A stretch of 64,000 bases of DNA. Source: Cyanophora paradoxa CCMP329. Its lineage: Eukaryota; Plantae; Glaucophyta. The position numbers were made by a program, and so were the translations under genes. The notes under the pieces are model-generated. The model had not been told where the DNA came from. It did no database searches and saw only the letters and a program-made list of their open reading frames with translations. The DNA is taken from assembly GCA_004431415.1 (NCBI GenBank), contig QPMI01000479.1, positions 62,001 to 126,000 on the forward strand. Direction: 5' to 3'. This document shows, one piece after another, positions 45,018 through 64,000 of this stretch (position 1 is the first letter of the stretch; every line of letters begins with the position of its first letter).

Positions 45018-48000
45018 ATGTCGGGTCCGGGCTCCTCTCGCGACCAGGTGAGCGCAGCTTTCGGCTGCACTTTTCGCGCGATTCGCATCCGAAGCGCGAA
45101 ATCCGTCTGCAGAATGCAAGGCGGGCGCCGCCTGCACCGGTACCATCGAGTACGAGTGACAGCCAGGAGCAGCTGCAGCTGCAGCTGCACCAACTACAGC
45201 AGCACGCCATCTGTCTCAAGGATCAGATTAAGAGCTTGGAGGGCAGCCTGCAGCGAGAACAGCGCTGGGCCGACGAACTTGAGCGAAAGCTGAACGTAAC
45301 AGAGACGCAAGCTCGCAATCAGTCCAAGCGAGCATCGGATGAGGCGGCAACCCGCCGGCGGGCGGAGGACAGGGCGGTAGAATTCTCGCGCCGCGCGCAG
45401 GGGGCCGAAGCAAAGCTGGCCGACGCCTACAAGGATCTTCGCGCGGAGCGCTCGTCGGCTGTGGTCGACGCCAAGATCGCCAAGGAGGAGCTGGACAAGG
45501 CGAGGACAGAATCGAGGCAGCACCAGCTTGCCTTGAAGGCTTCGGAGGCGGCAGCCGTGGCGGCCAAGTCGGAGCAGAGGAAACTAGCGAATGACCTGGC
45601 GGCGTCGCGGGCCGCGCAGGCGGCCGCGGAGGCGGCGGCCGCGAAAGCGACGACGGAGCTGCTCCAAGCACGCTCTTCGGCCGCCGCGGAAGCTGCGTCC
45701 GCCAAGACCGCCAAGGAGGAGCTGGAGAAGGCGAAGTACCAATTGGGACTGCATGAGCTGGCGTGGAAGACTTTGAATTCCAGACTCGGCGAGGAGCGAA
45801 CGCGGCGCGAGGCGGCGGAGCGGCGCGCAGAGGAGGCGGAGGCGGCGGCCGCGGCGGCGAAGGCGGAGCTGGCGAAGCAGGCGGAGGACCTGGCGGCGGC
45901 GCGGGCGGCCGCGGACGAGGCGAAGTCGCTGCGGGGCGGGTGGAGGAGGCGGAGGCGGTGGCCGCGCGCCTCGCGGCGGAGCTGGAGATCGCGCGGGCCG
46001 CGATGGCGCTCCGCGAGGAGCGGGGCGCGGCGCGGGCCGCGCGACCCTCCGCGGCCGAGACCCGCCGCCGGGCGATCTCCGTCTCTCCGCCCCGGGCAGG
46101 CGAGGCTCGCGGAGTCCCCGAGGTGCGCTGGGGAGCCAGAGAGTTCATTAGCAACTGCCATATCTAATTCTGTTAGTTCATATCGATATCTAATTTATTC
46201 TGTCTCACCGATCATTATTTGCAATTGCAGGTCGTGGATCTCGACACTCCGGCCAAGCCGGCACCCGTCGTAGCGAATTCGAAGCGGCTCAGCGTGTCGC
46301 TGCGTCTGCGCGAGCCGATGCCGCGGGCGTCGATGTCGCGGGCATCGTTTTCGCGGGCGTCAGTCTCGCGGGCATCATTTTCGCGGGCGTCGATTTCGCG
46401 GGCGCTGGTGAGCGCTTCGGAGATCCCGCCGGCTCTGTCTCTCTCGCGCACGCAGCTGACTTCAGCTTGTCGACAGCGGAGCAGCATCCGAGGCGAGAGC
46501 CCTTCGCGCCGCGAGCGGCCGCGAGCATCCAGCGCGGACCGGGGGCCGGCGGCGGGGCCCCGCGGGCGCCTGAGCGCCATCCCGGCATCGCCCGCGGCCG
46601 CGCGAGACGGATCGCGATCGGGCAGCCCGCGCAGCTGCGTCTGCTGTACCCCGAGCTCGAAGGCGTCCGCGGCCGGCGCCGGCGCCGGCGCCTGCGGCAA
46701 AGTAGACCCGACCCATGGCCAGTGCCCCCGCCCGGTCCAGCCGGCGCCGGCGCTCGCCGCGCTCGAGCTCGAGCTCGAGCTCGGCGAGCTCGAGTCGACG
46801 CCTGTTCGGCCGGCCCGCGCGCGCTCCGAGGCGCCTGAGGCGACGCCGGCTCGCGATCGGCCAGCGCCGGCGCCGCCCGCGGCTGCGGCGGCGGCGGCGG
46901 CGGCGGCGAATTCGAATGCGCATGCGGAGAGGCCGAAGCGTCCGCGCTCGAGCCCGCCGGCGGCCGGCCGCCACCGCTCCGTTCTTTTCGCGGGGAGCGA
47001 GCCCGATCGCGGGGCGCCGGTCCGCGTTCAGCCGGCGGCGTCTGCGGCGGCGTCTGCGGCATCGGCCCCGCTGGCGTCGCCCGCGGTCGTCCAGGAGCAG
47101 AAGCGCCGGCGGCGGCGGCACTCTTCCGTGTCGCCGCCCCGCGGCGCCGGGCGGAAGCTCGATCGCGACCGCGACGCGGAGCGGGAGCGGGAGCGGTCGC
47201 GGGAGGAGCGGCGGCGGCGGCAGGCGCGGATGAGCGCGCGGGAGTGGCGCGAGGAGCTGGATCGCCTCTTCGCGCTCGAGCTGGAGGACCGCACGCGGGC
47301 CGAGTGGCTCGCGAGCGCCCTGGAGCGGCAGCGCGAGGCCGAGCGGCGGCTCGCCGACCTCGAGGAGCGATGCCGCAGGGACCACTTCCCCGCACTGTGC
47401 GCGCGGCTCCTAATTTCTTCCAAGCTTCAACTTTCTTAAATTTATTCGCGCCTCTCATTCTCTCCATATATGCATTGATTGATACATGGTCGCAAAACCC
47501 CTATCGTGATATCGATGACCCTCGAGCTCGCGATATCGATGACCTCGCGATATCAGCTTAACCTCTCTTGAATTTCTTAGCGCAACTCATTAATGTTCTC
47601 TTAACGACCTCGCAGGTACCGGTACTACTACGACATGCGCGGGATGATCAACCGCCCGAACGAGGCCCGAGCTCGCGCCGCCACCGCCCCCGGCCCGGCC
47701 CCGCCTCGACCCTCGCCTTAAATTTCGCGGCGCAGGACGAGGGCACGATCTACGTCCTCCTGGACACCAACGTCTACCTGCACGAGGAGAAGGTCCGCAA
47801 TTGCAAGTCCCGGCACCGGTTCGGCCGAGCCGCTGGAAACAGCTGCGCGTGGGGAGGGGGGCAATATGATTTCTTATCTTCGACTCCTGCCTGGCCGGAC
47901 CTATCCGAGCAAATGTAATTTGGTTTTTGAGAAGGCCGCCAGGTCCGCGAGTGGGAGCGGCTCCTGCGCTACGCCGCCCGCGGCGTCCTCCTCATCGTCC

Positions 48001-50405
48001 CCCGCGTCGGTGCGGTCTTTTACATCTACCTGATCGTGATCGTGAACCTAGGTGTACATGTGTCCCGCGCGCGAATTCGATCCCGCGGCCGATCGATCCC
48101 GCGAAATCAAACTATAGCTAAACGCGGTCGGCCGCGTCCTGTCGGCCCGGCCTCGAATGCAGTGGAGAAGGAGCTGGACAAGTACCGCCAGAAGGCGTAC
48201 ATCAGCACCAACCCCCGCGAGCGCGAGGCGGTCCGCTCTCTCGATCTCCAGATCTAAATTTGATTTCGATGACCCTAGATTTGATCTAGATCTAGATCTA
48301 GATCTGAATTAATATTTGCGGATTCGAATTATAGCTGGAGGTTGAAAGCACCCACGATTGATCACGGATTCAATGTATATGTACCTCCTGCAGGCGTGCC
48401 TAGCTATAGATCCAAGATACCTCCCGCTCCCTAGATCAAGATTTAATTCGATCTGGATCTAATTCGCCTCGGGCAGGCGTGCCGGGCGGTGGCGGTGATC
48501 CAGGAGCACATGGCGGGGGGCCGGGCCTTCCCCGCCCTCCGCGTCGCCCTCCCCCACGAGCAGGTGCCCGCGCGCGCTTCAAAAGCTTAAGATAGGTCAA
48601 TGGGTAAAAAGATAGGTCGAAGTCAAAGATAGGCGCGGTGCCCCTTCGCGCCCAGGCCTTGAGGTCGAAACTTAAAGACAGGAGGCCTGGGCCGTTGTCC
48701 CGAGCCCCCGGCCCCGCCCCTCCTGAAGCCCTCCCCCACGAGCAGCTGGCGGTGGCCGTCGACGCCGGGCGCCCCCGCAACAGGTCAGCCTCCCGATCGG
48801 GCAGCAGCTTGCTCGACTCGTCGAGCCCGAGCGCGCCTAGTTGTCTACTTTAAGCTTGCCCCTGCAGGGGTGGGTAGCCTATAGCTAAAGCCTCATGATT
48901 GATATCATATAAGGCGGAAGCTTAAGGGCCCGGGGCGCTGCTCGAGCTCGCTCGACTCGTCGAGCGCTCTACCCGACCCTCTAACCTCGCCCGGCGCGCC
49001 CGGCCCGGCCCGCGTGCGCGCGCAACAGCGACGACCTCATCGTCGACACCGCCGCCTACTTCGCCGCCGTGCGCAACGAGCCACTCCGCCGACACGCGCG
49101 CATCTGGTCTGGTCTAGAGAGCGCACGGCGGCGATTCCCCCGGCCCTCCCATGGCCCTCCCTCCCCACCCTCGCCTCCCCCGATATCGATTCCCCCCGCT
49201 CACCTACTTTAAATTAAATCCCTCGAGCTCGCTTCGCTCCTACACCGCCGCCTGCTTTGAATTTGCCGCCGTGCGCTATAGCTCGCGACTGGCTTCACTT
49301 GCGATCGGAATCATAAAACCTAGCTATAGCGCGCGGAGCTTAAGAATTTATAAATCACGCATATCTGACAGGCATTCGAATTCAGATCGCGGCGTCGCCG
49401 GGGCACGTTCTTCTTGTTACATTCGACAAGGTGCGGCCGTGCGAGGGGGCCGGGGGGGCGCCGGCGGGCTGACCATGAGCGCTACCTATTTCTCTGGACA
49501 CGTTATAATTAACCGGGGCCAATCACCCGAATTTCGCATGGGATGTTCAACTGATCATGAGCGGGGGGGCGGTCTAGCTATATATAGATGCGGGCGATCT
49601 AGATCTGAGCGCTAGCTTCCCTCTAGATCTAGCCATGGACCAGGTAGTCGACTGCAGCTGGCCATGGTCGACGTCTCGCGATATATAACACCGATCGGAG
49701 GCTCATGATCATGACCGGCGGCTTTGATTTTCGAATTCGCCGCAGGGGATGTTCAACCGGGCGGCGGCGGCCGGCCTCCGCGCCGCCCCCGAGCTGCGGA
49801 GGGCGATGGCCGACCTCGGCGCCGTGCGCACTTAAGCTTCGAATTCGAATTCGAATTCGATCTCGGAAATTAAATTGCAATCGATCTAGATGCATGATCA
49901 TGAACTATAATTAGCTTCTATATTATTCGATTATCATGGCATGCGCACTGCGATTTAGCTGCTGCCTGTACTCGGAAATTAAATTGCAATCGATCTATAT
50001 GCATGATCATGAACTATAATTAGCTTCTATATATATAATTCGATTTTAAACTGCAAATTGCATTCGATCGTATATTCATAGCAAGCATGCAATAGCTCAT
50101 AAATTACGCGCTGCGATTTAGCTGCTGCCTGCGCGCGCTCCGATTCGCCATCGACGTCGACGCAAATTGCGATGCTTAATCAACCTATATGCATTAATAA
50201 GCTTCGATTTCATAAGATATTAATATTAATATTGCGAATTGCAATCGATGACATAAGCGTCAATTAATCAATATATATATATATACGTACGCGTGTACTC
50301 CCTACTCCCTGCGCTAACGCCTGCGCGATTCCGCCGACATCGATGCAGGTGGTCGACCGGTGGTCGATGGCGACGGAGGATCGTCGCGGGATGCTCCTCC
50401 CGTAG
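45018..50405 (+). CDS. Long coiled-coil protein with C-terminal PIN ribonuclease domain (Swt1/SMG6-like PIN), multi-exon
   Basis: In-frame splice DHFPAL|YRYYYD links the coiled coil to exons YVLLDTNVYLH, LIVPRVVEKELD, NSDDLIVDTAAYF, VLLVTFDK|GM (D,E,D,D). Needs one extra G in the run at about 45935 (probable homopolymer error). Confidence 0.7.
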
Positions 50406-50583
50406 CTATATTATATAAAGGGCGCAATTGAGGTTGCATTGCCTTCTAGGTTCCCTAAACATGAGCCCAGGAGAACCTGAAATGCGAAACCCGAATTTGA
50501 ATTCATGCATCGAATGAAGCATATATATATACGCATTGCGCATGCCGCTGCAATTCGCAAGTACGGCGAGATCCTGCTAAAGA

Positions 50584-51205
50584 TCAATTAGTATTGTGAG
50601 GACTCCCGCATCCCCCCCCCCCCCCCCCCCCCCCCCCCCCGCCTTCCGAGAACCTGGCCCGTGCAGCCGCCTCAGATCTAGATTCTAGATCTAGATTGTC
50701 GCGGCACCCGGATTCCGTCGGAAGCACGTCCTCGTCGCGCCACAGGTACATCTTGATGATGTCCGACACACTCCTAGAGTCTGGCGCGCAATTTAATCCC
50801 AGCACGCATCCTGGCGTCCCGCTGTTGTTCGCGCGCGCTCGCGATCGGAATCAGCTTCTCAGGTGATCGGTCGGAAGGGCACGTCACGTATACGTAGAAC
50901 ATTGGTATGTGTGCCGTGGTACCCCGGTGTGCCAATGTGATGTCCACTTTTAATTTGCAAAAACAAAAAAGGAATCAGCTTCTCAGGGTCGCGGGCGATA
51001 ATGCACAGGATCGAGATTAAGATATCGATGCAGACCTGAGTAGCCGAGATGCCATCCCGGAGAAGCTCCTCGAGCGTCGGCCAGTCCGGATCCCGGAGCC
51101 GCAAGAAACTTCTCCTGCAGGCCGTTACTAATTATAAGTTATCTCCGAGTCGAGGTGCAGAATGAAGTAGCTAGACCATTTCTCGAAGCCGCCAGGGCAG
51201 GACAT
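50584..51205 (-). CDS. Small hypothetical spliced gene
   Basis: GT-AG joins keep the frame: MSCPGGFEKW|RSFLRLRDPDWPTLEELLRDGISATQ|WTSHWH..CST|GTPGCVLGLNCAPD..PTESG. No homology recognised. Confidence 0.3.
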
Positions 51206-51580
51206 CTAGATCTTGAGGTCCGCTGAGGCTATAGCTAGAGGTGTCGATCGCGCGATATCGATCGCGTGCGCGATATCGATCGCGAGCTCTTATGTATATA
51301 ATTAATTATAAGCTTCCGGAACAGAAGCTTCAGCGCTGAGGTATACGTACGTGCGCTTCGCCGAGGCGAACAGAAGATCGCGCCCTGCTGCAAGTTAAAA
51401 TTATAATTACCCGTATTATGGGCCGTATACGCGTAGCCGGCGCACTGCGGCACTGCCGCACTGGCCCAGTGGCGGCAGTGCGGCACTGCGGCACTGCGGA
51501 TCGAAGGGGGTAGGGGTAGGGGGTGGCCCGCCCGGCCCCAATTGCAAAAGCGAAACTGACGTATAAACGGACCAGAAGAG

Positions 51581-51675
51581 ACACATATTGAAAAACGAAT
51601 TTAAATCCCTCGTTCATCTCGATCGCTTCGCGATCTCGATTCACTCTGGATTTAAATTCGTTTTTCAATATGTGT
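51581..51675 (-). repeat. 95-nt terminal imperfect palindrome (hairpin), copy 1
   Basis: 28-bp perfect arms 51581-51608 / 51648-51675, a 12+12 partly paired segment, GATCGC/GCGATC stem and 3-nt loop. Confidence 0.95.
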
Positions 51676-51996
51676 TAATTTAACTACTAAAATACATATT
51701 TATCGATTAATTTCTTTAACTTTTTATGCAAACTTTGTATAAATTAATGCAAACTTTGTATTAAAAATGATAAACGCGTTTAATTTAATGCATATTCACG
51801 ATTGATTCGATCGATATTATATCGATATATTATGTTCTTTGTCGATTACATATATAACTTCGATTGATTAACATTAAACTACTTAAAGAACGATATAATC
51901 GCGATTAATTCGCATAAATTCGCATAAATTCGCATAAACTCGATATATCTCTCTGGTATTGAAGTAGACCACCGCCCATTCTGTATCGAAAAACGC

Positions 51997-52260
51997 AAAA
52001 AGTGTCACAGAGTTGCATCATGTCCAATTAAACAATCGATGGAATTGCGGATTTACATTTTTGCACCGAAAAAGTGTCACAGAGTTGCATTATGTCCAAT
52101 TAAACAATTGAAGAGATTGCGCGATTTTCTATTGGAATATATCGGAACTGCATCACGTCCAATTAAACAATCGATGAGATTGCGGATTTACATTTTTGCA
52201 CCGAAAAAGTGTCACAGAGTTGCATGGTCTCCAATTGATCAATCGATTAGATTGCAGATG
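51997..52260. repeat. Subterminal imperfect tandem repeats (about 63-72 bp, four cores)
   Basis: Recurring aaaaagtgtcacagagttgcat..tccaattaaacaatcgat..attgc; repeated at about 58778-59040. Confidence 0.85.
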
Positions 52261-52368
52261 TTCTATAAAACAGAATAAATGAAATCAAGTGTGACAGATA
52301 GTATTCAAATGATATTCAGTAAGATATATTTCTGTTTTTGAGAAGAGTAGTAAGGGGGGCAGAATGTC

Positions 52369-52804
52369 TGTGACGCCTGTGACGGCTGTGACGCCTGTTT
52401 TCAGAAGTCTGTCATTTTTGAAAATTTTAAAAAGTTTGAAAGTAGGCGTCACAGGCGTCACAGGCGTCACACTCAATTAATTTAGGTGTCACAGCGAAAT
52501 TGCAGACCATTTCCAGTAAGACAACTTCGCATTTTCGGAAAGGTGGATTAATGGATAGTGTTTTGTAGGTGTCAGAGGTGTCACAAGACGGATTTCAGTA
52601 AGACAAGAATATATTTTTGAATATCTCAGTAAGAGAAAGAGATTCCATTTTTAATTGGGTGTGACGCCTGTGACGGCTGTGACGGCTGTTTTAAGAAGTC
52701 TGTCATTTTTGAAAATTTTAAAAAGTTTGAAAGTAGGCGTCACAGGCGTCACAGGCGTCACAGTCAATTAAAGAGGCGTCACAGTCAATTAAATAGGTGT
52801 CACA
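52369..52804. promoter_or_regulatory. Duplicated inverted iteron-like array (putative replication origin), copy 1
   Basis: TGTGAC at 52369/52378/52387, AT-rich spacer, GTCACA at 52448/52457/52466. The module is repeated 291 bp later (52660-52762) with extra GTCACA at 52778 and 52799. Confidence 0.6.
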
Positions 52805-52863
52805 CCCGATTATCTGACCATTTTCAGTAAGACCATCTGAAATTCTGAATTTCTCAGTGTCAA

Positions 52864-53265
52864 CTAACTCGGAAATCGCAATACTCTATGTTTCTCCGAT
52901 TTCTCCAACCCTGAAAACACACCTGTTATTCTCTCATCTATCTCATGAGATACTCTCGTGGTTTTCCTCTCTGCTTCTAATCCACAACTGAATATATCAA
53001 TCGCCAACATACCTTCATTTGAGTAACAATGAGCAGTGCAATGGCTCTCATCCAGCAGAAGAACCATTGCAAAACCAGGAGGAGAAATACCACCATCGAA
53101 AATCTCGCAATGCTTGTGAACTACTCGAATACCTTGCTCTTGAATAATAGTTTGCAAGAACTGCATTAACCACCTGGTTGTTGTCTCCAAGTCCTCCATT
53201 CCTACTGCTAATTGGGTTCTGAATTTGTAATCCAGCATCACATGGAAACCTCGATGAGTATTCAT
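52864..53265 (-). CDS. speD: S-adenosylmethionine decarboxylase proenzyme, short prokaryotic/viral class 1B type
   Basis: 133 aa; GFAMVLLLDESHCTAHCYSNEGMLAIDIFSCG matches the ESH self-cleavage (pyruvoyl) motif and the D.F.CG motif. Confidence 0.88.
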   Translation of the reverse strand: MNTHRGFHVMLDYKFRTQLAVGMEDLETTTRWLMQFLQTIIQEQGIRVVHKHCEIFDGGISPPGFAMVLLLDESHCTAHCYSNEGMLAIDIFSCGLEAERKTTRVSHEIDERITGVFSGLEKSEKHRVLRFPS

Positions 53266-53305
53266 TTATGAATAATTTAGAAAAATTAAAAACGCGAATG
53301 GTAGA

Positions 53306-53455
53306 ATGCGAACCATCTTAGCAAGAGTGCTACCTTATGAGTTGGTGGATATCATTCTGCTGCACTACCACAAGACCTGTCCCAGCTGCTTTGACACATG
53401 CATAATCACAAAGGGAAAATGGGGAAAGATTCTCATTTCTCTCTCAAAGATCTAA
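53306..53455 (+). CDS. 49-aa ORF with F-box-like LPxELxxxIL start and CxxC
   Basis: MRTILARVLPYELVDIILLHYHKTCPSCFDTC..; fills the gap between neighbours and its TAA overlaps the TAG of the convergent gene. Below the ORF-track cutoff. Confidence 0.5.
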   Translation: MRTILARVLPYELVDIILLHYHKTCPSCFDTCIITKGKWGKILISLSKI

Positions 53456-53724
53456 TCGAAATATAATACTACTGGTTTATCATCTATCACGATTCCTGAT
53501 GTCGTCTTTTTTCTATATGCATGAGAGGATTTCTTGTTGCATTCTCTGCATCCACTTCCCCTTACATGATTAAATGGGTAGGTTTGCAGGATCTTGTTGC
53601 ATTTAAGGCATCTAACAGAGACCTTCTCTTGTGCTTTCTTATAGACTGTCTCACTATAATCGAATTTAGCATCACCATGAACCATCATTGCAGATTCTAT
53701 GAATTTCTTTGTTTTATCATCCAT
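53452..53724 (-). CDS. Stand-alone Zn-ribbon protein (DUF723/CapR-like module of viral homing-endonuclease-type proteins)
   Basis: FIESAMMVHGDAKFDYSETVY..KVSVRCLKCNKILQTYPFNHVRGSGCREC. Confidence 0.7.
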   Translation of the reverse strand: MDDKTKKFIESAMMVHGDAKFDYSETVYKKAQEKVSVRCLKCNKILQTYPFNHVRGSGCRECNKKSSHAYRKKTTSGIVIDDKPVVLYFD

Positions 53725-53753
53725 CCCTCTCTCTATATATATACCTGAGATTT

Positions 53754-54583
53754 CTATGGAGCAGTATCCTGTCCGAAAATGGGGAAGTAGCGATTTGTGC
53801 CGTAATATTCTGCATATGTATTCTGTTTTGCAATAGCATCGGTTCTCTCAGCATAGAGAATGCATTTGTAGATACCAAACCTGGTGGCTCTCACCAAGAA
53901 CTGGTAATCTTCAAGACCGAAATTCACTCCATGATAAGCAATTCCGAAATTGTCATATGGCGTGATCACAACTGCAATATTTGGGGTTCCACCCTCTACT
54001 TGACAGACAGCATAAACATCTGGTGGGATATCGACAACCACCTTGTAGTGGTCACCAATCTCAACAAGAGAATCAACTACTGATGTCTGCTCATTCACAA
54101 CAATTGGGAAGATCTTGATAATATATGGTGCATTCATACTGGGGACATAGGTGCGAATTCTGGTGTTGGGATCAATGGGATTGGGTTGATCATTTACGAA
54201 AAGAGGCGCACCAACAGCTCCACCAATCCGAAGACCATCACCAATATATGCTCCCCCGTTTTGCAGTTAATAGCTCCCGACCGAGATTCAAAAGAATAAG
54301 TAGAAAGAGGATCACCATAACTGTCTGGGTCTCCATAGTGGGCAGAAAAGTTTGCATTTGTGACAAGGAGTTTCGTTGTCTTAACTATACCATTATTTTT
54401 ATCACACCTGAGTTCTTGCAATCTCAGTTTGTGGGTGGAACCAAATGTATTCATTGTGGGTTGCACTTCTGTGGATTGGAGACCTTCTACATCATCAAAG
54501 GTAGCATGCTGCAAAACGTGATTTGCAGGTGCTGCTAATGAGAGTTGGGGTGTAATAATTCGTTCTGGTATTGGGGCAGCCAT
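53754..54583 (-). CDS. Putative virion protein A (276 aa), split here by a 1-nt homopolymer deletion near 54253
   Basis: Intact in copy 2 (60533-61363); C5 versus C6 run. Paralogous to the adjacent 291-aa ORF. Confidence 0.65.
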
Positions 54584-54584
54584 T

Positions 54585-55460
54585 TTACATTAAAGTGATA
54601 TATAATTTATGGGTTGGGTCATCAATCACATCTGGTTCCTGGTAAAACCCTGTTGTGAAGATATCTGCAACGTTTACCCCTCGAAGTGCCGAAACAGCTG
54701 CTATATCTGTCCTCAGTCCCATAATCATAGTATTGTAAACTCCAACCTCAGTTACAAACAAATCATAGGTAAATGTCAAATTGTTATAAACACAATATCC
54801 TCGACCGAAATGGTTTGATGCTTGAACAAAGAATAGGTAATTATGACCTGTTTGATTGTTGTTTGCTCTGCACATAGATAGCATTGCTGTGGGAAGCGGA
54901 ATATTTCTTCTTACTCGATCAGTTCCTGTTATAATAACCAATTCCGAATTTTCAAGAGTGACAGAGGAAGCAACATAGAAATGTAGAAAAGGTTGCTGTG
55001 CAACTGGTGTATAGAAACGTATTCGTTGGGGATTCTCTACATTTTGTTCAAGAGTATCTGGGACATCATTATACGAAATGGAGGATGAGAGTTGACCTGA
55101 CACTCTGCAACCTCCCCCAATAAATGCTCCTCCTGATCTCACAGTAACAGCAGCAGTATTCTTATCGAAATCAAGGGCTTTTAAATCTACACTGTATGCA
55201 TCAGGACCTCCATTTGTCGGTTGAAAGAAGTTAGCATTTGTTACAAGTAGTCGTGTGGTTTTAACTACACCCGAATTCTTATCGGCTCGGAGTTCTTTTA
55301 CACGAATCATCGAGTTTTTATCAAAGGAGTTACCATTAGAATTGGGTCTCTCTGTGGATTCTAAACCGCGAACTTCATCATTAACTTCATGTTGTCGAAA
55401 GTGCATAGCTGGCGATCCAAGCGAATAAATGGGCAGTTGAACTCGATTGTATTCACCCAT
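54585..55460 (-). CDS. Putative virion protein B (291 aa), paralog of protein A
   Basis: Shares ELRxDKNxGxVKTTxLLVTNANF and GGAxIGxGxRxxG with protein A. Its stop abuts the next ATG. Differences between copies are mostly synonymous. Confidence 0.7.
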   Translation of the reverse strand: MGEYNRVQLPIYSLGSPAMHFRQHEVNDEVRGLESTERPNSNGNSFDKNSMIRVKELRADKNSGVVKTTRLLVTNANFFQPTNGGPDAYSVDLKALDFDKNTAAVTVRSGGAFIGGGCRVSGQLSSSISYNDVPDTLEQNVENPQRIRFYTPVAQQPFLHFYVASSVTLENSELVIITGTDRVRRNIPLPTAMLSMCRANNNQTGHNYLFFVQASNHFGRGYCVYNNLTFTYDLFVTEVGVYNTMIMGLRTDIAAVSALRGVNVADIFTTGFYQEPDVIDDPTHKLYITLM

Positions 55461-55509
55461 TGCTTCTTTTACTAAGAAGGATAGAAAAATAAAGGAGAAT
55501 CTAAGTTAA

Positions 55510-58361
55510 TTATGGTATTCCATATGCTGTCCAATGGATTGTGCAAGTGATACTACGACTTTCAGATAGAGTAGGGGATGCTATGAATGTCACATAAATT
55601 GTTGTATATGTAGATGTGGAGTTTGAGATTCCAATTCTAAAATCTACATCCCCGGGGTTTGTTGCAGGAGTTCCTTGAAGAGTGGCATTTACAACAGGTG
55701 TTTGTGTGTAAAAAGCAGGATTCCAATTTAAAACATATGCATGCTGTGTTCTCTGACCCGCGCTTATCACACCACTTGTAGCTTCGTATTTTCCTGATTT
55801 GAAACGTCTTTCTATATCAGACCAAGTTGGAAGTTGGCTAATTGTATTGGTGGTTCCCGAATTCATTGCATAAAATGCTCTTGCATAAGCATTTCCGCGA
55901 CAGAGTAGGGTTTTATCATAGAAGTTTGCTGAATTGTGGAAGAACCAAGTTTCCTCATTTGTAGGCGATGCAGGGGCTACTATTTGACCTGATCCTACAT
56001 ACATAGTATTATTTGCAGTGATTGTATTGGCTGTGAATGGGTCTAAACTTGGGAGATCTGTGATTTCTGATTTAGTATGAGTATGGGCGAAATCTGTAAT
56101 ATTTGCCTTTGTGTGAGTATGGGCAAAGTCGGTGATATCTGATTTAGTGTGAGAGTGAGGTCCGACAGTTGTAGAAGCTGTTGGTTTCCCATAAATGTTA
56201 TCCCAATGCAAGAAGCCGCTATGTGAGGATACAGTGGGGTTCTTGCTCCAACCTACAAGACCCACAAGGTAAATCCTTCCTATTCGCCCTTGAACACCCA
56301 CTTTACTCAGCCCTTCACAATTCACTCCGACATATTGCCTATACTCTACACTTGGGTCACTACCAGGAGAATAAGCATTTACTCTCGAAAGTGTATAAGA
56401 ATTCGTTGATGGATAAACTCCCACAACATCGAAGTATCTGCTATTATATTGACACACATAGAAGATATAGCATGTTTTCATTCCCGCAGGGACAGTCCAT
56501 AACATCTTGTAGCCACTACAATCTTCATCACCAGAAGCCCATGTGTTTGCTCCTGAGTAAGGAGATATAAATGTGAAAAATCTCCAATCGCCTGTGCGAT
56601 CTGTTGAAAGACCATTTGTGGCATCAAAGTTGATGGGGGATGTGTATGTTGGTTTATTTATCAGATCATCGTAATTTCCTGTCGTTGCAACAGTTGCAAG
56701 ATTAGGTCTATCTGTGATATTTGACCAAGCATGAGTATGGGTTGCAGGAGGGAATGTTAAAGGTTTATCTGTGATATTGTTCCATGCATGACTGTGAGTT
56801 TGAAGTGCAACACCCAATTCGGTTTCATCTATATAATTTTTGCTTTGCAGGTAATCGTCTGTGACCACACCTGAAAGGGTCTCGTTGTGCAGGTTTTTAG
56901 CCGCCATTCTCTGATTGGCTTCAATAGCCCCACCTGATAGCGTTTTAATCCAAGCGATCTCAGCTTTACTGTAATTATCAGTTGGTTGCCCAACAAGTGG
57001 AATATAATTGAGTTTATCCCGAGTGAAAACTATCTTAGGTCTTGATCCATCCAAGCTGCTTACATCTGTCACATTCACATGGACAGCTGCTGAGAAGTCT
57101 TGATAACCCGCAGGATTGGAGGGAACACCGAACCCATCCTTTGGAATATCGTTTTTGTAATAGCTTGTCACATAGATATTCGGGAAAGTGTCACCCGGGT
57201 TAACATACGCCATATCTTGCACTCGGAATTGAGGCAAGCTTCGGACAAATAGAGGTCCTGTCATTGCACTGCCCGCATCAGCCCCTTTGAGGTGAACATA
57301 ATGCTCATTCAAAATAGTTCTTTCCGCAATATTGCAGGATTTATAAAGGGAAACCCCATATTCACAGGTTCGACCTTTGAGAATTCAGGTTGGTTATTGA
57401 TCTCATCCCATGTATGCTCATGGGTTGCAGGTGGGAATATTGAAGGTCTATCTGTGATATTCGACCAAGCATGAGTGTGGTTTTGTATCCATCCCTGCAC
57501 CACATTGGATGTTGTGTAGTTTGGAATTATAGCGTTTGAACCTACTATTAAATTTTTAATGTGGACATAGTCAGAAGAAATTCGCAGATTTTCGGGATAA
57601 TAAAGCGATTGCGTTTTTGGGAAGCCGTAATAATCCTGAATATAGTATCTCACCCTTTGCTTCTCTTCAAACGTTAATGCTCTATTGAAAATGATGTATT
57701 CGGCTATATCACCTATGAAATAGTTAACACCCATCCTACTGAAAGTTGAAGGTGGAAGGTAATTTGTTCCTGTAAAGGTTCCTACATCTTGTCCTCTGAT
57801 TCCAAAGGTTATGCTGTTTGAAGTTATGGTGGTGTCCCAATAATTAGCTGAATAATTATTGGGGATGAACTGTGACTGAGGATTTGTATTAACAGGAAGC
57901 CCATCCATTCTCATTGTTAAAAGGCATTTCGGTGTGGTTTTGGCAGGGTCAGTGTTGGAAGTAATGGGGTAATAGGGTGGATCATAGTAGACATCGATTT
58001 CTGTATTTCCGTCTCCTATTTTCAGCTTTCCCTTCACATTCAGGTTACATGTAACTGTAAGATTGCTACCAATCCAAGCGGATCCTGTGTTGCTACTGTT
58101 TATTGATTTCACTGTTCCATGCACATCCAAATTACTTGTGGTAAGATTGCTTGTTATAATAAGATTTCCATCTATTGTTCCCCCTGATTTTGGCAAGTAG
58201 TTGTTGAGCCACCCTAATGTAACATTACTACTTGTGAGAGGAGCCAAGAGTTCGTTTAATGTAGCTGCACTCACCTTCGAGACAAGCCATCCCTGAACAG
58301 TATTTGAAGAGGTTAGAGGAGCTATTTGAGCATTCACAGTTGCTGTATCAGCCTTAGTAGC
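55510..58361 (-). CDS. Phage-tail-fibre-like protein, 5'-truncated; ORFs 57309-58367 and 55510-57312 are probably one gene
   Basis: YLPKSGGTIDGNL; LamG-like YFIGDIAEYIIFNRALTFEE; repeats H.HAW.NITD.P and HTHTK..ITD; C-terminal F..TPVV.ATL...IHWTAYG (H-type-lectin-like tip). Confidence 0.75.
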
Positions 58362-58456
58362 ACACATATTGAAAAACGAATTTAAATCCCTCGTTCATCT
58401 CGATCGCTTCGCGATCTCGATTCACTCTGGATTTAAATTCGTTTTTCAATATGTGT
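58362..58456 (-). repeat. 95-nt terminal imperfect palindrome, copy 2
   Basis: Identical to 51581-51675. Confidence 0.95.
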
Positions 58457-59149
58457 TAATTTAACTACTAAAATACATATTTATCGATTAATTTCTTTAA
58501 CTTTTTATGCAAACTTTGTATAAATTAATGCAAACTTTGTATTAAAAATGATAAACGCGTTTAATTTAATGCATATTCACGATTGATTCGATCGATATTA
58601 TATCGATATATTATGTTCTTTGTCGATTACATATATAACTTCGATTGATTAACATTAAACTACTTAAAGAACGATATAATCGCGATTAATTCGCATAAAT
58701 TCGCATAAATTCGCATAAACTCGATATATCTCTCTGGTATTGAAGTAGACCACCGCCCATTCTGTATCGAAAAACGCAAAAAGTGTCACAGAGTTGCATC
58801 ATGTCCAATTAAACAATCGATGGAATTGCGGATTTACATTTTTGCACCGAAAAAGTGTCACAGAGTTGCATTATGTCCAATTAAACAATCGATCAGATTG
58901 CGGGATTTTCTATTGGAATATATCGGAACTGCATCACGTCCAATTAAACAATCGATGGAATTGCGGATTTACATTTTTGCACCGAAAAAGTGTCACAGAG
59001 TTGCATGGTCTCCAATTGAACAATCGATTAGATTGCATATGTTCTATAAAACAGAATAATTGAGATCAAGTGTGACAGGTAGTATTCAAATGATATTCAG
59101 TAAGAGATAGTTTTGTTTTTGAGAAAGTCAGTAAGAGGGGTGGAATGTC

Positions 59150-59585
59150 TGTGACGCCTGTGACGGCTGTGACGCCTGTTTTCAGAAGTCTGTCATTTTT
59201 GAAAATTTTAAAAAGTTTGAAAGTAGGTGTCACAGGCGTCACAGGCGTCACACTCAATTAAATTAGGTGTCACAGCGAAATTGCAGACCATTTCCAGTAA
59301 GACAACTTCGCATTTTCGGAAAGGTGGATTAATGGATAGTGTTTTGTAGGTGTCAGAGGTGTCACAAGACGGATTTCAGTAAGACAAGAATATATTTTTG
59401 AATATCTCAGTAAGAGAAAGAGATTCCATTTTTAATTGGGTGTGACGCCTGTGACGGCTGTGACGGCTGTTTTAAGAAGTCTGTCATTTTTGAAAATTTT
59501 AAAAAGTTTGAAAGTAGGCGTCACAGGCGTCACAGGCGTCACAGTCAATTAAAGAGGCGTCACAGTCAATTAAATAGGTGTCACA
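59150..59585. promoter_or_regulatory. Inverted iteron-like array, copy 2
   Basis: Same TGTGAC x3 / GTCACA x3 double module. Confidence 0.6.
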
Positions 59586-59644
59586 CCCGATTATCTGACC
59601 ATTTTCAGTAAGACCATCTGAAATTCTGAATTTCTCAGTGTCAA

Positions 59645-60046
59645 CTAACTCGGAAATCGCAATACTCTATGTTTCTCCGATTTCTCCAACCCTGAAAACA
59701 CACCTGTTATTCTCTCATCTATCTCATGAGATACTCTCGTGGTTTTTCTCTCTGCTTCTAATCCACAACTGAATATATCAATCGCCAACATACCTTCATT
59801 TGAGTAACAATGAGCAGTGCAATGGCTCTCATCCAGCAGAAGAACCATTGCAAAACCAGGAGGAGAAATACCACCATCGAAAATCTCGCAATGCTTGTGA
59901 ACTACTCGAATACCTTGCTCTTGAATAATAGTTTGCAAGAACTGCATTAACCACCTGGTTGTTGTCTCCAAGTCCTCCATTCCTACTGCTAATTGGGTTC
60001 TGAATTTGTAATCCAGCATCACATGGAAGCCTCGATGAGTATTCAT
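59645..60046 (-). CDS. speD: AdoMet decarboxylase proenzyme, copy 2
   Basis: Protein identical to copy 1; two synonymous differences seen. Confidence 0.88.
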   Translation of the reverse strand: MNTHRGFHVMLDYKFRTQLAVGMEDLETTTRWLMQFLQTIIQEQGIRVVHKHCEIFDGGISPPGFAMVLLLDESHCTAHCYSNEGMLAIDIFSCGLEAERKTTRVSHEIDERITGVFSGLEKSEKHRVLRFPS

Positions 60047-60086
60047 TTATGAATAATTTAGAAAAATTAAAAACGCGAATGGTAGA

Positions 60087-60236
60087 ATGCGAACCATCTT
60101 AGCAAGAGTGCTACCTTATGAGTTGGTGGATATCATTCTGCTGCACTACCACAAGACCTGTCCCAGCTGCTTTGACACATGCATAATCACAAAGGGAAAA
60201 TGGGGAAAGATTCTCATTTCTCTCTCAAAGATCTAA
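60087..60236 (+). CDS. 49-aa F-box-like/CxxC ORF, copy 2
   Basis: Identical to 53306-53455. Confidence 0.5.
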   Translation: MRTILARVLPYELVDIILLHYHKTCPSCFDTCIITKGKWGKILISLSKI

Positions 60237-60505
60237 TCGAAATATAATACTACTGGTTTATCATCTATCACGATTCCTGATGTCGTCTTTTTTCTATATG
60301 CATGAGAGGATTTCTTGTTGCATTCTCTGCATCCACTTCCCCTTACATGATTAAATGGGTAGGTTTGCAGGATCTTGTTGCATTTAAGGCATCTAACAGA
60401 GACCTTCTCTTGTGCTTTCTTATAGACTGTCTCACTATAATCGAATTTAGCATCACCATGAACCATCATTGCAGATTCTATGAATTTCTTTGTTTTATCA
60501 TCCAT
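60233..60505 (-). CDS. Zn-ribbon (DUF723-like) protein, copy 2
   Basis: Identical protein to copy 1. Confidence 0.7.
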   Translation of the reverse strand: MDDKTKKFIESAMMVHGDAKFDYSETVYKKAQEKVSVRCLKCNKILQTYPFNHVRGSGCRECNKKSSHAYRKKTTSGIVIDDKPVVLYFD

Positions 60506-60532
60506 CCCTCTCTCTATATATACCTGAGATTT

Positions 60533-61363
60533 CTATGGAGCAGTATCCTGTCCGAAAATGGGGAAGTAGCGATTTGTGCCGTAATATTCTGCATATGTAT
60601 TCTGTTTTGCAATAGCATCGGTTCTCTCAGCATAGAGAATGCATTTGTAGATACCAAACCTGGTGGCTCTCACCAAGAACTGGTAATCTTCAAGACCGAA
60701 ATTCACTCCATGATAAGCAATTCCGAAATTGTCATATGGCGTGATCACAACTGCAATATTTGGGGTTCCACCCTCTACTTGACAGACAGCATAAACATCT
60801 GGTGGGATATCGACAACCACCTTGTAGTGGTCACCAATCTCAACAAGAGAATCAACTACTGATGTCTGCTCATTCACAACAATTGGGAAGATCTTGATAA
60901 TATATGGTGCATTCATACTGGGGACATAGGTGCGAATTCTGGTGTTGGGATCAATGGGATTGGGTTGATCATTTACGAAAAGAGGCGCACCAACAGCTCC
61001 ACCAATCCGAAGACCATCACCAATATATGCTCCCCCCGTTTTGCAGTTAATAGCTCCCGACCGAGATTCAAAAGAATAAGTAGAAAGAGGATCACCATAA
61101 CTGTCTGGGTCTCCATAGTGGGCAGAAAAGTTTGCATTTGTGACAAGGAGTTTCGTTGTCTTAACTATACCATTATTTTTATCACACCTGAGTTCTTGCA
61201 ATCTCAGTTTGTGGGTGGAACCAAATGTATTCATTGTGGGTTGCACTTCTGTGGATTGGAGACCTTCTACATCATCAAAGGTAGCATGCTGCAAAACGTG
61301 ATTTGCAGGTGCTGCTAATGAGAGTTGGGGTGTAATAATTCGTTCTGGTATTGGGGCAGCCAT
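60533..61363 (-). CDS. Putative virion protein A, intact copy
   Basis: Uninterrupted 276-aa ORF. Confidence 0.7.
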   Translation of the reverse strand: MAAPIPERIITPQLSLAAPANHVLQHATFDDVEGLQSTEVQPTMNTFGSTHKLRLQELRCDKNNGIVKTTKLLVTNANFSAHYGDPDSYGDPLSTYSFESRSGAINCKTGGAYIGDGLRIGGAVGAPLFVNDQPNPIDPNTRIRTYVPSMNAPYIIKIFPIVVNEQTSVVDSLVEIGDHYKVVVDIPPDVYAVCQVEGGTPNIAVVITPYDNFGIAYHGVNFGLEDYQFLVRATRFGIYKCILYAERTDAIAKQNTYAEYYGTNRYFPIFGQDTAP

Positions 61364-61386
61364 TTTACATTAAAGTGATATATAAT

Positions 61387-62241
61387 TTATGGGGTTGGGT
61401 CATCAATCACATCTGGTTCCTGGTAAAACCCTGTTGTGAAGATATCTGCAACGTTTACCCCTCGAAGTGCCGAAACAGCTGCTATATCTGTCCTCAGTCC
61501 CATAATCATAGTATTGTAAACTCCAACCTCAGTTACAAACAAATCATAGGTAAATGTCAAATTGTTATAAACACAATATCCTCGACCGAAATGGTTTGAT
61601 GCTTGAACAAAGAATAGGTAATTATGACCTGTTTGATTGTTGTTTGCTCTGCACATAGATAGCATTGCTGTGGGAAGCGGAATATTTCTTCTTACTCGAT
61701 CAGTTCCTGTTATAATAACCAATTCCGAATTTTCAAGAGTGACAGAGGAAGCAACATAGAAATGTAGAAAAGGTTGCTGTGCAACTGGTGTATAGAAACG
61801 TATTCGTTGGGGATTCTCTACATTTTGTTCAAGAGTATCTGGGACATCATTATACGAAATGGAGGATGAGAGTTGACCTGACACTCTGCAACCTCCCCCA
61901 ATAAATGCTCCTCCTGATCTCACAGTAACAGCAGCAGTATTCTTGTCGAAATCTAGGGCTTTCAGGGCAACACTGTAAGCATCAGGACCTCCATTTGTAG
62001 GCTGGAAGAAGTTAGCATTGGTGACAAGAAGTCGAGTTGTTTTAACCACACCAGAATTCTTATCAGCTCTCAGCTCTTTTACTCGAATAATCGAATTTTT
62101 ATCAAAGGAGTTACCATTGGAATTGGGTCTCTCTGTGGATTCTAAACCACGAACCTCATCATTTACTTCATGCTGGCGAAAATGCATTGCAGGGGATCCA
62201 AGGGAATATATAGGCAGTTGAACTCGATTATATTCACCCAT
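61387..62241 (-). CDS. Putative virion protein B, copy 2
   Basis: ATG at 62241 by comparison with copy 1. An extra G near 61391 changes the last residues. Confidence 0.7.
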   Translation of the reverse strand: MGEYNRVQLPIYSLGSPAMHFRQHEVNDEVRGLESTERPNSNGNSFDKNSIIRVKELRADKNSGVVKTTRLLVTNANFFQPTNGGPDAYSVALKALDFDKNTAAVTVRSGGAFIGGGCRVSGQLSSSISYNDVPDTLEQNVENPQRIRFYTPVAQQPFLHFYVASSVTLENSELVIITGTDRVRRNIPLPTAMLSMCRANNNQTGHNYLFFVQASNHFGRGYCVYNNLTFTYDLFVTEVGVYNTMIMGLRTDIAAVSALRGVNVADIFTTGFYQEPDVIDDPTP

Positions 62242-62290
62242 TGCTTCTTTTACTAAGAAGGAAAGAAAAATAATGCGAAATATGCATTTA

Positions 62291-64000
62291 TTATGGGATT
62301 CCATATGCTGTCCAATGGATTGTGCAAGTAATACTTCGACTTTCAGATAGAGTAGGGGATGCTATGAATGTCACATAAATTGTTGTATAGGTAGATGTGG
62401 AGTTTGAGATTCCAATTCTAAAATCTACATCCCCGGGGTTTGTTGCAGGAGTTCCTTCAAGTGTGGCAGTTACAACAGGTGTCTTAGTGTAAAAAGCAGG
62501 ATCCCAATTCAAAACCTGTGCATGCTGTGTTCTCTGACCTGCACTTATAGCACCACTGTAAGCTTGAAATTTTCCTGACTTAAATCGTCTTTCTATATCA
62601 TACCAAGTTGGAAGTTGGCTAATTGTATTGGTGGTTCCCGAATTCATTGCATAAAATGCCCTTGCATAAGCATTTCCTTTGCAGAGCAAGGTTTTATCAT
62701 AGAAGTTTGCTGAATTGTGGAAGAACCAAGTTTCCTCATTTGTAGGCGATGCAGGGGCTACTATTTGACCTGATCCTACATACATAGTATTATTTGCAGT
62801 GATTGTATTGGCTGTGAATGGGTCTAAACTTGGGAGATCTGTGATTTCTGATTTAGTATGAGTATGGGCGAAATCTGTAATATTTGCCTTTGTGTGAGTA
62901 TGGGCAAAGTCGGTGATATCTGATTTAGTGTGAGAGTGAGGTCCGACAGTTGTAGAAGCTGTTGGTTTCCCATAAATGTTATCCCAATGCAAGAAGCCGC
63001 TATGTGAGGATACAGTGGGGTTCTTGCTCCAACCTACAAGACCCACAAGATAAATCCTTCCTATTCGCCCTTGAACACCCACTTTACTCAGCCCTTCACA
63101 ATTCACTCCGACATATTGCCTATACTCTACACTTGGGTCACTACCAGGAGAATAAGCATTTACTCTCGAAAGTGTATAAGAATTCGTTGATGGATAAACT
63201 CCCACAACATCGAAGTATCTGCTATTATATTGACACACATAGAAGATATAGCATGTTTTCATTCCGCAGGGACAGTCCATAACATCTTGTAGCCACTACA
63301 ATCTTCATCACCAGAAGCCCATGTGTTTGCTCCTGAGTAAGGAGATATAAATGTGAAAAATCTCCAATCGCCTGTGCGATCTGTTGAAAGACCATTTGTG
63401 GCATCAAAGTTGATAGGGGATGTGTATGTTGGTTTATTTATCAGATCATCGTAATTTCCTGTCGTTGCAACAGTTGCAAGATTAGGTCTATCTGTGATAT
63501 TTGACCAAGCATGAGTATGGGTTGCAGGAGGGAATGTTAAAGGTTTATCTGTGATATTGTTCCATGCATGACTGTGAGTTTGAAGTGCAACACCCAATTC
63601 GGTTTCATCTATATAATTTTTGCTTTGCAGGTAATCGTCTGTGACCACACCTGAAAGGGTCTCGTTGTGCAGGTTTTTAGCCGCCATTCTCTGATTGGCT
63701 TCAATAGCCCCACCTGATAGCGTTTTAATCCAAGCGATCTCAGCTTTACTGTAATTATCAGTTGGTTGCCCAACAAGTGGAATATAATTGAGTTTATCCC
63801 GAGTGAAAACTATCTTAGGTCTTGATCCATCCAAGCTGCTTACATCTGTCACATTCACATGGACAGCTGCTGAGAAGTCTTGATAACCCGCAGGATTGGA
63901 GGGAACACCGAACCCATCCTTTGGAATATCGTTTTTGTAATAGCTTGTCACATAGATATTCGGGAAAGTGTCACCCGGGTTAACATACGCCATATCTTGC
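62291..64000 (-). CDS. Fibre-like protein, copy 2 (partial; 1-nt deletion near 63263 splits the ORF)
   Basis: ttccgcagg versus ttcccgcagg in copy 1; otherwise colinear, with a variant C-terminal tip. Confidence 0.72.

Follow-up and report, generated by a model that had tools for sequence, protein, structure and literature searches.

Integrated DNA viruses are increasingly seen as common in the genomes of protists, and their ends and accessory modules are poorly described. Here, we analyze a 64,000-nucleotide (nt) stretch of Cyanophora paradoxa CCMP329 DNA (contig QPMI01000479.1, positions 62,001 to 126,000 of the forward strand; hereafter the window), in which GC-rich DNA gives way at 51580/51581 to a low-GC block that runs to the end of the window. 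These 12.4 kb are made up of 1.83 visible head-to-tail copies of a 6,781-bp unit and thus hold 6.8 kb of unique sequence. The unit consists, in this order, of a palindrome, about 1.2 kb of iteron-rich noncoding DNA, and six co-oriented genes, which encode a homologue of S-adenosylmethionine decarboxylase (AdoMetDC), a zinc-finger protein, two related proteins of 276 and 291 amino acids (p276 and p291), and two fibre-like proteins of 600 and 352 amino acids (the latter termed p352). Our preferred explanation, to which we give a probability of roughly 0.45, is that a large DNA virus of the giant-virus (Nucleocytoviricota) kind has integrated here and that the array is its repeated end region; the hallmark genes of this virus would then be found outside the window.

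Among the giant endogenous viral elements (GEVEs), the punuivirus of Chlamydomonas reinhardtii is described as a 617-kb element with a satellite array of variable length in its terminal repeats; its ends are inverted repeats of 10.8 to 14.8 kb that carry an ACC...GGT motif and are accompanied by a target duplication of 6 bp, and its GC content is nearly host-like (PMC11398304). Our array resembles the GEVEs as apparently foreign, intron-less viral DNA in a nuclear chromosome, with repeats at an end and a bacterial-type auxiliary metabolic gene. In contrast to the punuivirus, it ends in a 95-nt palindrome, next to which lies a tandem unit of 6.8 kb with genes, and its GC content is 30 points below that of the host; furthermore, unlike in GEVEs, no hallmark gene is in view. 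The endogenous mavirus-like elements (EMALEs) of Cafeteria burkhardae are reported as insertions of 30 to 53% GC in a 70%-GC genome that recombine in modules and capture giant-virus genes, each with a mavirus-like gene and inverted repeats of 0.2 to 2.3 kb (PMC8547959). The array is similar in that it is low-GC, compact, and intron-less DNA within host DNA of about 70% GC, but none of its six proteins belongs to the virophage families, and it is a tandem direct repeat. None of the features of polintons and virophages (terminal inverted repeats, target duplication, jelly-roll capsid protein, ATPase, protease, and integrase) was found in the visible part, which comprises one end only.

In size, the unit comes close to the transpovirons, linear episomes of about 7 kb found in Mimiviridae and pacmanviruses (PMC7031253; PMC11788076); all complete transpovirons are stated to have a superfamily-1 helicase and terminal inverted repeats of 380 to 520 nt (PMC7031253). 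A unit of about 7 kb with 6 to 8 genes, an internal tandem-repeat region, a small zinc-finger protein (a likeness by description), and the lack of a capsid gene are common to both, but the array has no match to a helicase family and no inverted repeat beyond the palindrome, and no fibre gene or AdoMetDC is reported from transpovirons (PMC7031253; PMC11788076). A keyword-limited literature search, which is not proof of absence, found no hairpin-led, gene-bearing tandem unit of 6.8 kb at a virus-host junction.

Architecture of the tandem array

The array and its genes, as seen in the self-comparison of the window and in the list of open reading frames (ORFs), comprise the following features.

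51580 to 51581, no strand: junction of host-type DNA and low-GC array; unit homology starts at 51581 (= 58362), and GC drops from 0.53 to 0.22–0.32
51581 to 58361, minus strand: unit 1, 6,781 bp (blastn self-comparison and global alignment)
58362 to 64000, minus strand: unit 2, 5,639 bp visible, ending at the end of the window; 98.0% identity to 51581–57220 over 5,645 columns (blastn self-comparison)
51581 to 51675, no strand: imperfect palindrome of 95 nt; identical copy at 58362–58456
51676 to 52863, no strand: noncoding, repeat-rich region with short repeats, 135-nt-spaced repeats, and two inverted 9-mer clusters
52864 to 53265, minus strand: class-1b AdoMetDC homologue, 133 amino acids; unit-2 copy at 59645–60046
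53452 to 53724, minus strand: zinc-finger protein (treble-clef), 90 amino acids; unit-2 copy at 60233–60505
53754 to 54583, minus strand: unit-1 copy of p276, frame disrupted where a C5/C6 run differs by 1 nt (ORF list and copy alignment)
60533 to 61363, minus strand: intact p276 of unit 2, 276 amino acids
54585 to 55460, minus strand: p291, a paralogue of p276; unit-2 copy at 61387–62241
55510 to 57312, minus strand: fibre-like protein of 600 amino acids, with phage-tail repeats at residues ~170–210 and ~385–420
62291 to 63280 and 63259 to 64000, minus strand: frameshifted unit-2 copy of the 600-amino-acid fibre (ORF list and copy alignment)
57309 to 58367, minus strand: p352, a fibre-like protein of 352 amino acids, with a phage-tail repeat at residues ~295–330
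55164 to 55908, minus strand: variable block, extending from the C-terminal tip of the fibre across a spacer of 49 nt into p291 (codons 1 to 100)

The six ORFs are intron-less and tightly packed (coding density of 77%), and all of them are on the minus strand, i.e., they read toward the junction; the right part of the block, as far as the window shows it, repeats these six genes and brings no new ones. The change in composition is abrupt. In 1-kb steps, GC is 0.60 to 0.77 up to 48 kb, 0.44 to 0.57 at 49 to 52 kb, and 0.35 to 0.42 beyond 52 kb; in 100-nt bins, it is 0.53 at 51501–51600 and 0.32, 0.22, and 0.24 in the three bins thereafter. The block as a whole has 40% GC, compared to about 70% in the flank, and a self-BLAST of the window found no similarity between the block and the GC-rich part at E ≤ 1e−3. 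The original prediction for this DNA had described a switch to AT-rich DNA at 51580/51581, followed by a hairpin, repeats, and iterons, and compact intron-less genes that nearly all run toward the end, among them a phage-type fibre and a polyamine gene. Every one of these items is present at the coordinates given above or below; what had been overlooked is the 6,781-bp tandem repeat, so that the sequence of the block is not unique.

The arms of the palindrome (51581–51626 and 51630–51675) are 85% complementary. Folded as single-stranded DNA, they form a perfect outer stem of 28 bp (ΔG of −33.5 kcal/mol, z of −10.4), and none of 200 shuffles folded as well. Short repeats follow (a 21-mer present 2.1 times at 51726–51769 and a 10-mer present 3.6 times at 51907–51942), then the 135-nt-spaced repeats at 52014–52255, and then GGCGTCACA-type 9-mers in two inverted clusters around A+T-rich spacers (52368–52471 and 52660–52804). 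The iteron GKYGTCACA occurs 27 times in the window, with 26 occurrences in the low-GC block (13 per unit), where about 0.67 would be expected for the whole window, and none of 100 shuffles reached 27. Palindrome, short repeats, and iterons all recur from 58362 in unit 2. With this content, the region 51676–52863 is best read as a putative origin-like or regulatory region.

The unit start in any tandem array is merely the point where the first copy begins; the nontrivial part is that this point coincides with the edge of the palindrome. The array starts at most 1 nt from the outer base of the 28-bp stem, which by chance would apply to only a few positions in 6,781, and this coincidence suggests to us a site for the creation or joining of DNA ends. 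The picture is compatible with a molecule that ends at the outer edge of a terminal palindrome or with a recombination site at this edge. A parvovirus-like rolling-hairpin replicon was also considered and dropped: no match to a Rep family (HUH/SF3 NS1) was found, and one palindrome per unit is seen, although its position at the edge is compatible with such a replicon.

The hairpin telomeres of pox-, asfar-, and chloroviruses have a duplex junction form that is flanked by inverted copies of the genome end. The array shares with them an A+T-rich imperfect palindrome, then short tandem repeats, and genes reading toward the end. However, its inverted similarity is confined to the 95 nt, and the flanks of the palindrome (the p352 gene and the repeat region) are unrelated in the self-BLAST; the junction with the host lies at the edge of the palindrome and not at its axis; and the identical palindrome at 58362–58456 stands inside the array, i.e., the hairpin sequence is not limited to an end. 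For these reasons, a pox- or chlorovirus-type telomere junction is excluded, and the earlier view of the hairpin as the end of a linear genome of the pox-, asfar-, or chlorovirus type is not supported.

Units 1 and 2 differ by 107 substitutions and 6 indels in a global alignment, and the substitutions are very unevenly spread: 84 are in the variable block (745 bp, about 11% divergence), 19 are in noncoding DNA at 52081–52580, and 4 are elsewhere. Within the block, the 49-nt spacer between fibre and p291 has 10 changes, the first 300 nt of p291 have 37 synonymous and 2 nonsynonymous differences (dS of 0.93, dN/dS of 0.009), and the last 402 nt of the fibre (~130 codons) have 20 synonymous and 15 nonsynonymous differences (dN/dS of 0.21). 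The other 549 nt of p291 are identical, and a further 570 nt of the fibre differ at one position. Amino acid changes between the units are concentrated at the tip of the fibre. The genes of the diverged block appear, from these ratios, to have evolved under strong purifying selection, and the 745-bp mosaic points to a segment from a well-diverged relative that recombined into an otherwise near-identical unit. A shift in GC between the two alleles was ruled out, as G or C stands at 33 versus 38 of the 84 variable positions. The four indels that affect a frame (at 54253, 54611, and 56483 and in the region of 57310) each change a single base in C5/C6, G3/G4, and C3/C2 runs, and another indel is a change in a TA repeat between genes; the homopolymer frameshifts may reflect decay or sequencing error.

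Proteins encoded by the unit

The AdoMetDC homologue belongs to Pfam family PF02675 (AdoMet_dc; E = 6e−11, 43.1 bits versus a cut-off of 25), which bears out the polyamine gene at the family level; with the NCBIfam equivalog model, it scores below the cut-off (42.1 versus 75.65). All 13 homologues in an alignment share residues E73, S74, H75, and C80, which also line up with the T. maritima enzyme 1TLU, i.e., the Glu-Ser self-cleavage site, the next His, and the Cys are conserved. AdoMet is the presumed substrate. Class-1b AdoMetDC (SpeD) genes are described from Algavirales viruses, in which they are active, and from phages, and some viral homologues are described as arginine or ornithine decarboxylases (PMC9992855). 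Since class-1b AdoMetDC is already known in Algavirales, the gene itself is no novelty; like the Algavirales SpeD, it would encode a small prokaryote-type pyruvoyl enzyme of a eukaryotic virus with an E-S-H...C core.

Searches for relatives of this protein gave 54 database entries, of which the top nine are 46 to 60% identical (best local BLASTP alignment), and 80 loci in a metagenome scan, the nearest of which are 45 to 53% identical. Gene neighbours were annotated for eight of the top ten loci (all but L008 and L009; for L006, ORFs were listed without a Pfam scan). Locus L001 (50% identity) encodes a major capsid protein of the nucleocytoplasmic large DNA viruses (NCLDV; 9e−64) and a D5 helicase, L002 and L003 encode D5 and RNase III, L010 encodes a C962R-type primase and an A32 ATPase, and L007 is a 107-kb contig of 23% GC with ankyrin and GT25 genes. 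L003 also encodes a GH46 chitosanase-like protein (positions 906–2390, minus strand; 1.1e−16), which adjoins the RNase III and D5 helicase genes. L004 and L005 (43% identity) are cellular, with genes for deoxyhypusine synthase and enolase. In a maximum-likelihood tree of 59 rows, the protein of the window pairs with P0121 (99/88), and the sister group of this pair (96/79) is a clade of 11 rows (99/93) to which L001 to L003 belong; the cellular and archaeal rows, L004 and L005 included, are outside the clade, and the branch of the window protein is long (1.02), which leaves its exact place unsure. By their gene content, the clade members of known context all lie on NCLDV-type contigs.

The p276 and p291 proteins are 33% identical to each other and have no match in Pfam, PHROG, or NCBIfam. 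When 1.84 billion representative proteins were searched with a p276/p291 profile, six relatives were found. One of them, P0175, aligns with p276 from end to end at 64% identity, and therefore, the 276-amino-acid frame of unit 2 can be taken as the true gene. In the other five, the match is limited to about 120 N-terminal residues, of which 17 are invariant. At their C-termini, P0176 and P0178 have a C1q domain that scores above the Pfam cut-off, and P0180 has a weak C1q match; in p276 and p291, Pfam found no C1q domain. The sole result of a PDB profile search with A4 was a weak match to C1q (Caprin-2; E = 0.19), which is due to the relatives that carry C1q. In EukProt, P0179 (which stands for a cluster of five) and P0180 are listed as predictions from Cyanophora paradoxa, and it was observed that P0179 to P0184 (EukProt) are multi-copy Cyanophora paradoxa proteins with the p276/p291 N-terminal domain.

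Outside this set, the family was not found: 98 pattern matches in 185,579 prokaryote species genomes yielded no confirmed relative, IMG/VR scans found none, and a word-indexed search with p291 gave no match. The ESM Atlas gave sub-threshold leads only for p291 (≤0.82), and a structure prediction for this protein from a three-row alignment was unusable (mean predicted local distance difference test [pLDDT] score of 29.9). The N-terminal ~120 residues of p276 and p291 make up a conserved domain of a new family. A conserved N-terminal part with interchangeable heads is the usual build of virion fibres and receptor-binding proteins, and p276 and p291 probably are such proteins.

The two fibre ORFs carry the HxHxW..IT.(K/R)P motifs of the phage tail repeat, in line with the phage-type fibre that had been predicted. 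For the 600-amino-acid fibre, the Pfam match to PTR is below the cut-off, PHROG tail families match down to 3e−9, and the sole PDB match is to a phage tail-collar fibre over residues 173 to 204. Most of its 256 database matches cover 5 to 15% of the query, and in two matches that were compared residue by residue, the alignment runs through the repeats only. Likewise, p352 matches PHROG tail families at 5e−6 to 2e−3, and tblastn with this protein matched 66 phage records, all at residues 262 to 336 with a coverage of 19% or less. The repeats (HxHxW..IT.KP), the modular build, and a variable block at the tip, which resembles host-range modules, liken these proteins to tailed-phage fibres (PF12789), but the similarity is restricted to the repeats, the N- and C-terminal domains have no phage match, and no other phage gene is present. 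A tailed phage, be it a contaminant or a prophage, is not supported: among 50,697 phage records, the whole unit had no blastn match, and tblastn found no match for p276, for AdoMetDC (E ≤ 1e−3), or for the last 171 residues of the fibre. Together with p276 and p291, four of the six genes thus seem to encode modular virion fibres or receptor-binding proteins that combine a conserved anchor or repeat part with a variable head.

The palindrome of the next unit contains the ATG of p352 in its first 6 nt, and an in-frame stop is found 24 nt (eight codons) upstream of this ATG. Since the start codon is supplied by the next unit, the gene is complete only in a concatemer, a circle, or a longer genome. 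The 600-amino-acid ORF has no ATG, and its start, a TTG in a T-run, overlaps with the stop of p352; a homopolymer error or a frameshift may have split a single gene of 952 amino acids into these two ORFs. By eye, a Shine-Dalgarno-like motif is absent before five of the six starts, and neither sigma-70 promoters (17 versus 21.6) nor intrinsic terminators (6 versus 4.8) exceed chance. A TCTA-type late promoter motif was dropped as a candidate, as it stands before only two of the six genes (by eye). A LamG fold for residues 1 to 290 of p352 was not confirmed: the ESM Atlas scores of 0.85 to LamG-type phage proteins are sub-threshold, and Pfam gave no confirmation at E ≤ 10. The protein has a motif, F.G.I.E..I.NRAL, that may be LamG-like, and its single-sequence structure prediction was unusable (mean pLDDT of 32.1).

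For the zinc-finger protein, the match to DUF4379 (2.8e−4) is below the cut-off, and the DNA-binding parts of PHROG endonuclease families match at 7e−11 to 4e−8.

The GC-rich flank

To the left of the junction, two genes could be assigned.

1857 to 1967, plus strand: U5 spliceosomal small nuclear RNA (snRNA) gene (Rfam RF00020, 62.8 bits versus a gathering cut-off of 40, E = 4e−8, full model length)
27695 to 28957, minus strand: host RNase H1 gene in three separate ORFs (Pfam RNase_H, 2.8e−15; Cauli_VI, 1.3e−7 and 5.3e−6)

The RNase H domain and two parts of the N-terminal hybrid-binding domain of RNase H1 each lie in an ORF of their own, which implies introns. The Pfam scan of the flank matched 4 of 91 long stop-to-stop ORFs, i.e., the three RNase H1 pieces and an F-box domain in the ORF at 17150–17824; ten more flank ORFs that were scanned had no family match. 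No tRNA gene was found in the window, and no Rfam family was found in its low-GC part. Because of the U5 snRNA, the intron-split RNase H1, and the F-box, we read the left flank as eukaryotic nuclear DNA, in agreement with the eukaryotic chromosome that had been proposed as the left neighbour.

Several observations concern the composition of this flank. Palindromic hexamers (ATCGAT, TCTAGA, AGATCT, CGATCG, and GAATTC) are over-frequent in the host-type DNA at 46000–51580. At 47501–51580, 274 hexamer palindromes were observed versus 97.6 expected (ratio of 2.8, z = 18), compared to a ratio of 1.12 for positions 1 to 47500, and their density near the junction is 56 to 83 per kb, versus about 25 elsewhere. 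They are located in A+T-richer patches that separate GC-rich, exon-like stretches. A continuation of this richness into the element was ruled out, with ratios of 1.3 in its noncoding and 0.9 in its coding DNA, versus 2.8 in the flank. At 47730–49110 (plus strand), the GC-rich exon-like stretches give PIN-domain-like peptides by eye, e.g., '...VLLDTNVYLHEE...', and alternate with the palindrome-rich, A+T-richer spacers. Long homopolymer runs of C or G recur in the GC-rich part (29 C at 50612–50640 and further runs near 677–699, 14547–14570, 41963–41987, and 42901–42937). Finally, the 8-mer GCACTGCG occurs about seven times in two inverted groups at 51434–51504, followed by GGGGTAGGGGTAGGGGGT; this region is GC-rich, lies 40 to 140 nt left of the junction, and is outside the tandem unit.

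Origin and meaning of the array

The AdoMetDC clade, a fibre-head family for which no prokaryote or phage relatives were found, and the signature of purifying selection together lead us to regard the low-GC block as foreign and virus-like. The proposal of an integrated virus end of an unrecognised class thus stands as far as foreign, virus-like DNA that fits no testable class is concerned, and it is not supported with respect to the linear-end hairpin.

A number of findings weigh against the repeated end of an integrated giant virus. Only one of the six genes (AdoMetDC) has giant-virus-linked relatives, and none of its 80 metagenomic loci encodes relatives of the other five proteins (tblastn). 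In the 12.4 kb visible, the six proteins include no capsid protein, packaging ATPase, polymerase, primase-helicase, or integrase, and specifically no NCLDV major capsid protein, PolB, A32 ATPase, D5 primase-helicase, or VLTF3. Scans of IMG/VR with the fibre, AdoMetDC, p352, A1, A3, and A4 were all empty, as was an exact search for the palindrome arm. The overlaps of stops and starts and the TTG start of the 600-amino-acid ORF look prokaryote-like, the fibre similarity is to phage proteins (though only over the short repeat), a 1-nt frameshift in a homopolymer run affects p276 in unit 1 and the fibre gene in unit 2, and an array of cassette copies alone would better suit a satellite.

Such a satellite would be the cassette itself as the whole element, i.e., a non-autonomous giant-virus satellite or plasmid of about 6.8 kb and thus of transpoviron size, integrated as a head-to-tail concatemer, with ends or a recombination site at the palindrome, with exchangeable fibres, and with a helper that supplies replication, capsid, and packaging. 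The unit boundary and the host junction, both at the palindrome edge, are in line with this, and so are a p352 gene whose full length requires a circle, a concatemer, or a molecule that bears the palindrome at each of its ends; an origin-like, iteron-rich stretch of 1.2 kb in a unit that has no replication gene; and two different alleles in one array, as expected from the joining of separate molecules. Linear giant-virus episomes of 7 kb are indeed on record (PMC7031253). However, the helicase and the terminal inverted repeats, stated there to be universal in complete transpovirons, are missing, four fibre genes plus a metabolic gene make an odd load, and only 1.83 units are visible, for which a simple local duplication within a larger virus genome would account equally well. 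We consider the satellite unlikely. Somewhat more doubtful still is its boldest form, in which the 6.8-kb unit would represent a new class of hairpin-bounded, helper-dependent giant-virus replicon, a "fibre cassette" satellite without replication and capsid genes. If this were true, the replicon would be cut and joined at the palindrome edge and held in the host nucleus as head-to-tail concatemers, and its interchangeable fibres on a new N-terminal anchor, together with the polyamine enzyme, would shift the host range of the helper.

It might also be that the junction at 51580/51581 is an assembly or library chimera, in which a free virus or a contaminating phage or plasmid was joined to host DNA at a real molecular end. 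The change is abrupt, no sequence is common to both sides, the join is exactly at the palindrome edge (a possible end of a free linear molecule), the homopolymer indels suggest error-prone long reads, and the fibre repeats are phage-like. On the other hand, a join by the assembler requires several concordant reads, five of the six proteins have no phage or prokaryote relatives beyond the repeat motif, and the fibre-head family has relatives in a eukaryote genome (Cyanophora paradoxa). Moreover, the units differ from each other in a diverged block, and the unrolling of a single circle therefore does not account for the tandem. A chimera is, in our view, quite unlikely, and we think it improbable that the array belongs to an integrated polinton-like virus or virophage as its accessory end, with the core genes to the right. 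The composition would be as in Cafeteria burkhardae, with compact intron-less genes in an element of 30 to 53% GC and a host of about 70% GC, and such elements are known to capture giant-virus genes and to recombine in modules (PMC8547959). But the six proteins show no match to virophage or polinton core families, the IMG/VR scans were empty, the known ends are terminal inverted repeats of 0.2 to 2.3 kb and not a 95-nt palindrome followed by a 6.8-kb tandem repeat, and a fibre cassette of at least 12.4 kb is large for a genome of 15 to 30 kb. Very improbable, finally, is an old, decaying, functionless relic, a duplicated fragment left after loss of most of the virus. One frameshifted gene per unit is what such a relic would have, but all four frame-affecting indels are single-base changes in homopolymer runs and may be sequencing errors, only ~4 substitutions are found in ~4.5 kb outside the variable blocks, the GC content is still 30 points below that of the host, and purifying selection in the diverged block seems to have been strong.

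For the repeated end region of an integrated giant virus, the following course of events can be imagined. DNA ends would be created or joined at the palindrome edge, which could be a genome terminus or else a recombination site, and this would explain both the host junction and the unit boundary. A module of fibre genes and an auxiliary polyamine gene may have been amplified or recombined at this site, which would have given rise to the array, and recombination with a diverged relative may have been the source of the different fibre-tip alleles. A replication or transcription factor that is encoded elsewhere might bind the iteron clusters, and AdoMetDC might boost the supply of spermidine during infection.

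In sum, the junction at a palindrome edge and the 6.8-kb gene-bearing unit together would make an end architecture that is unreported, in the papers searched, for GEVEs, virophage-like elements, and transpovirons. The junction, if confirmed, points to a specific and testable DNA-processing site. The two alleles in one array may be a record of host-range module exchange in a eukaryotic virus, similar to that of phage tail fibres. The p276/p291 family is a candidate for the attachment apparatus of an uncharacterised group of eukaryotic viruses, and its multi-copy relatives in Cyanophora paradoxa may mark unrecognised viral insertions in that genome.

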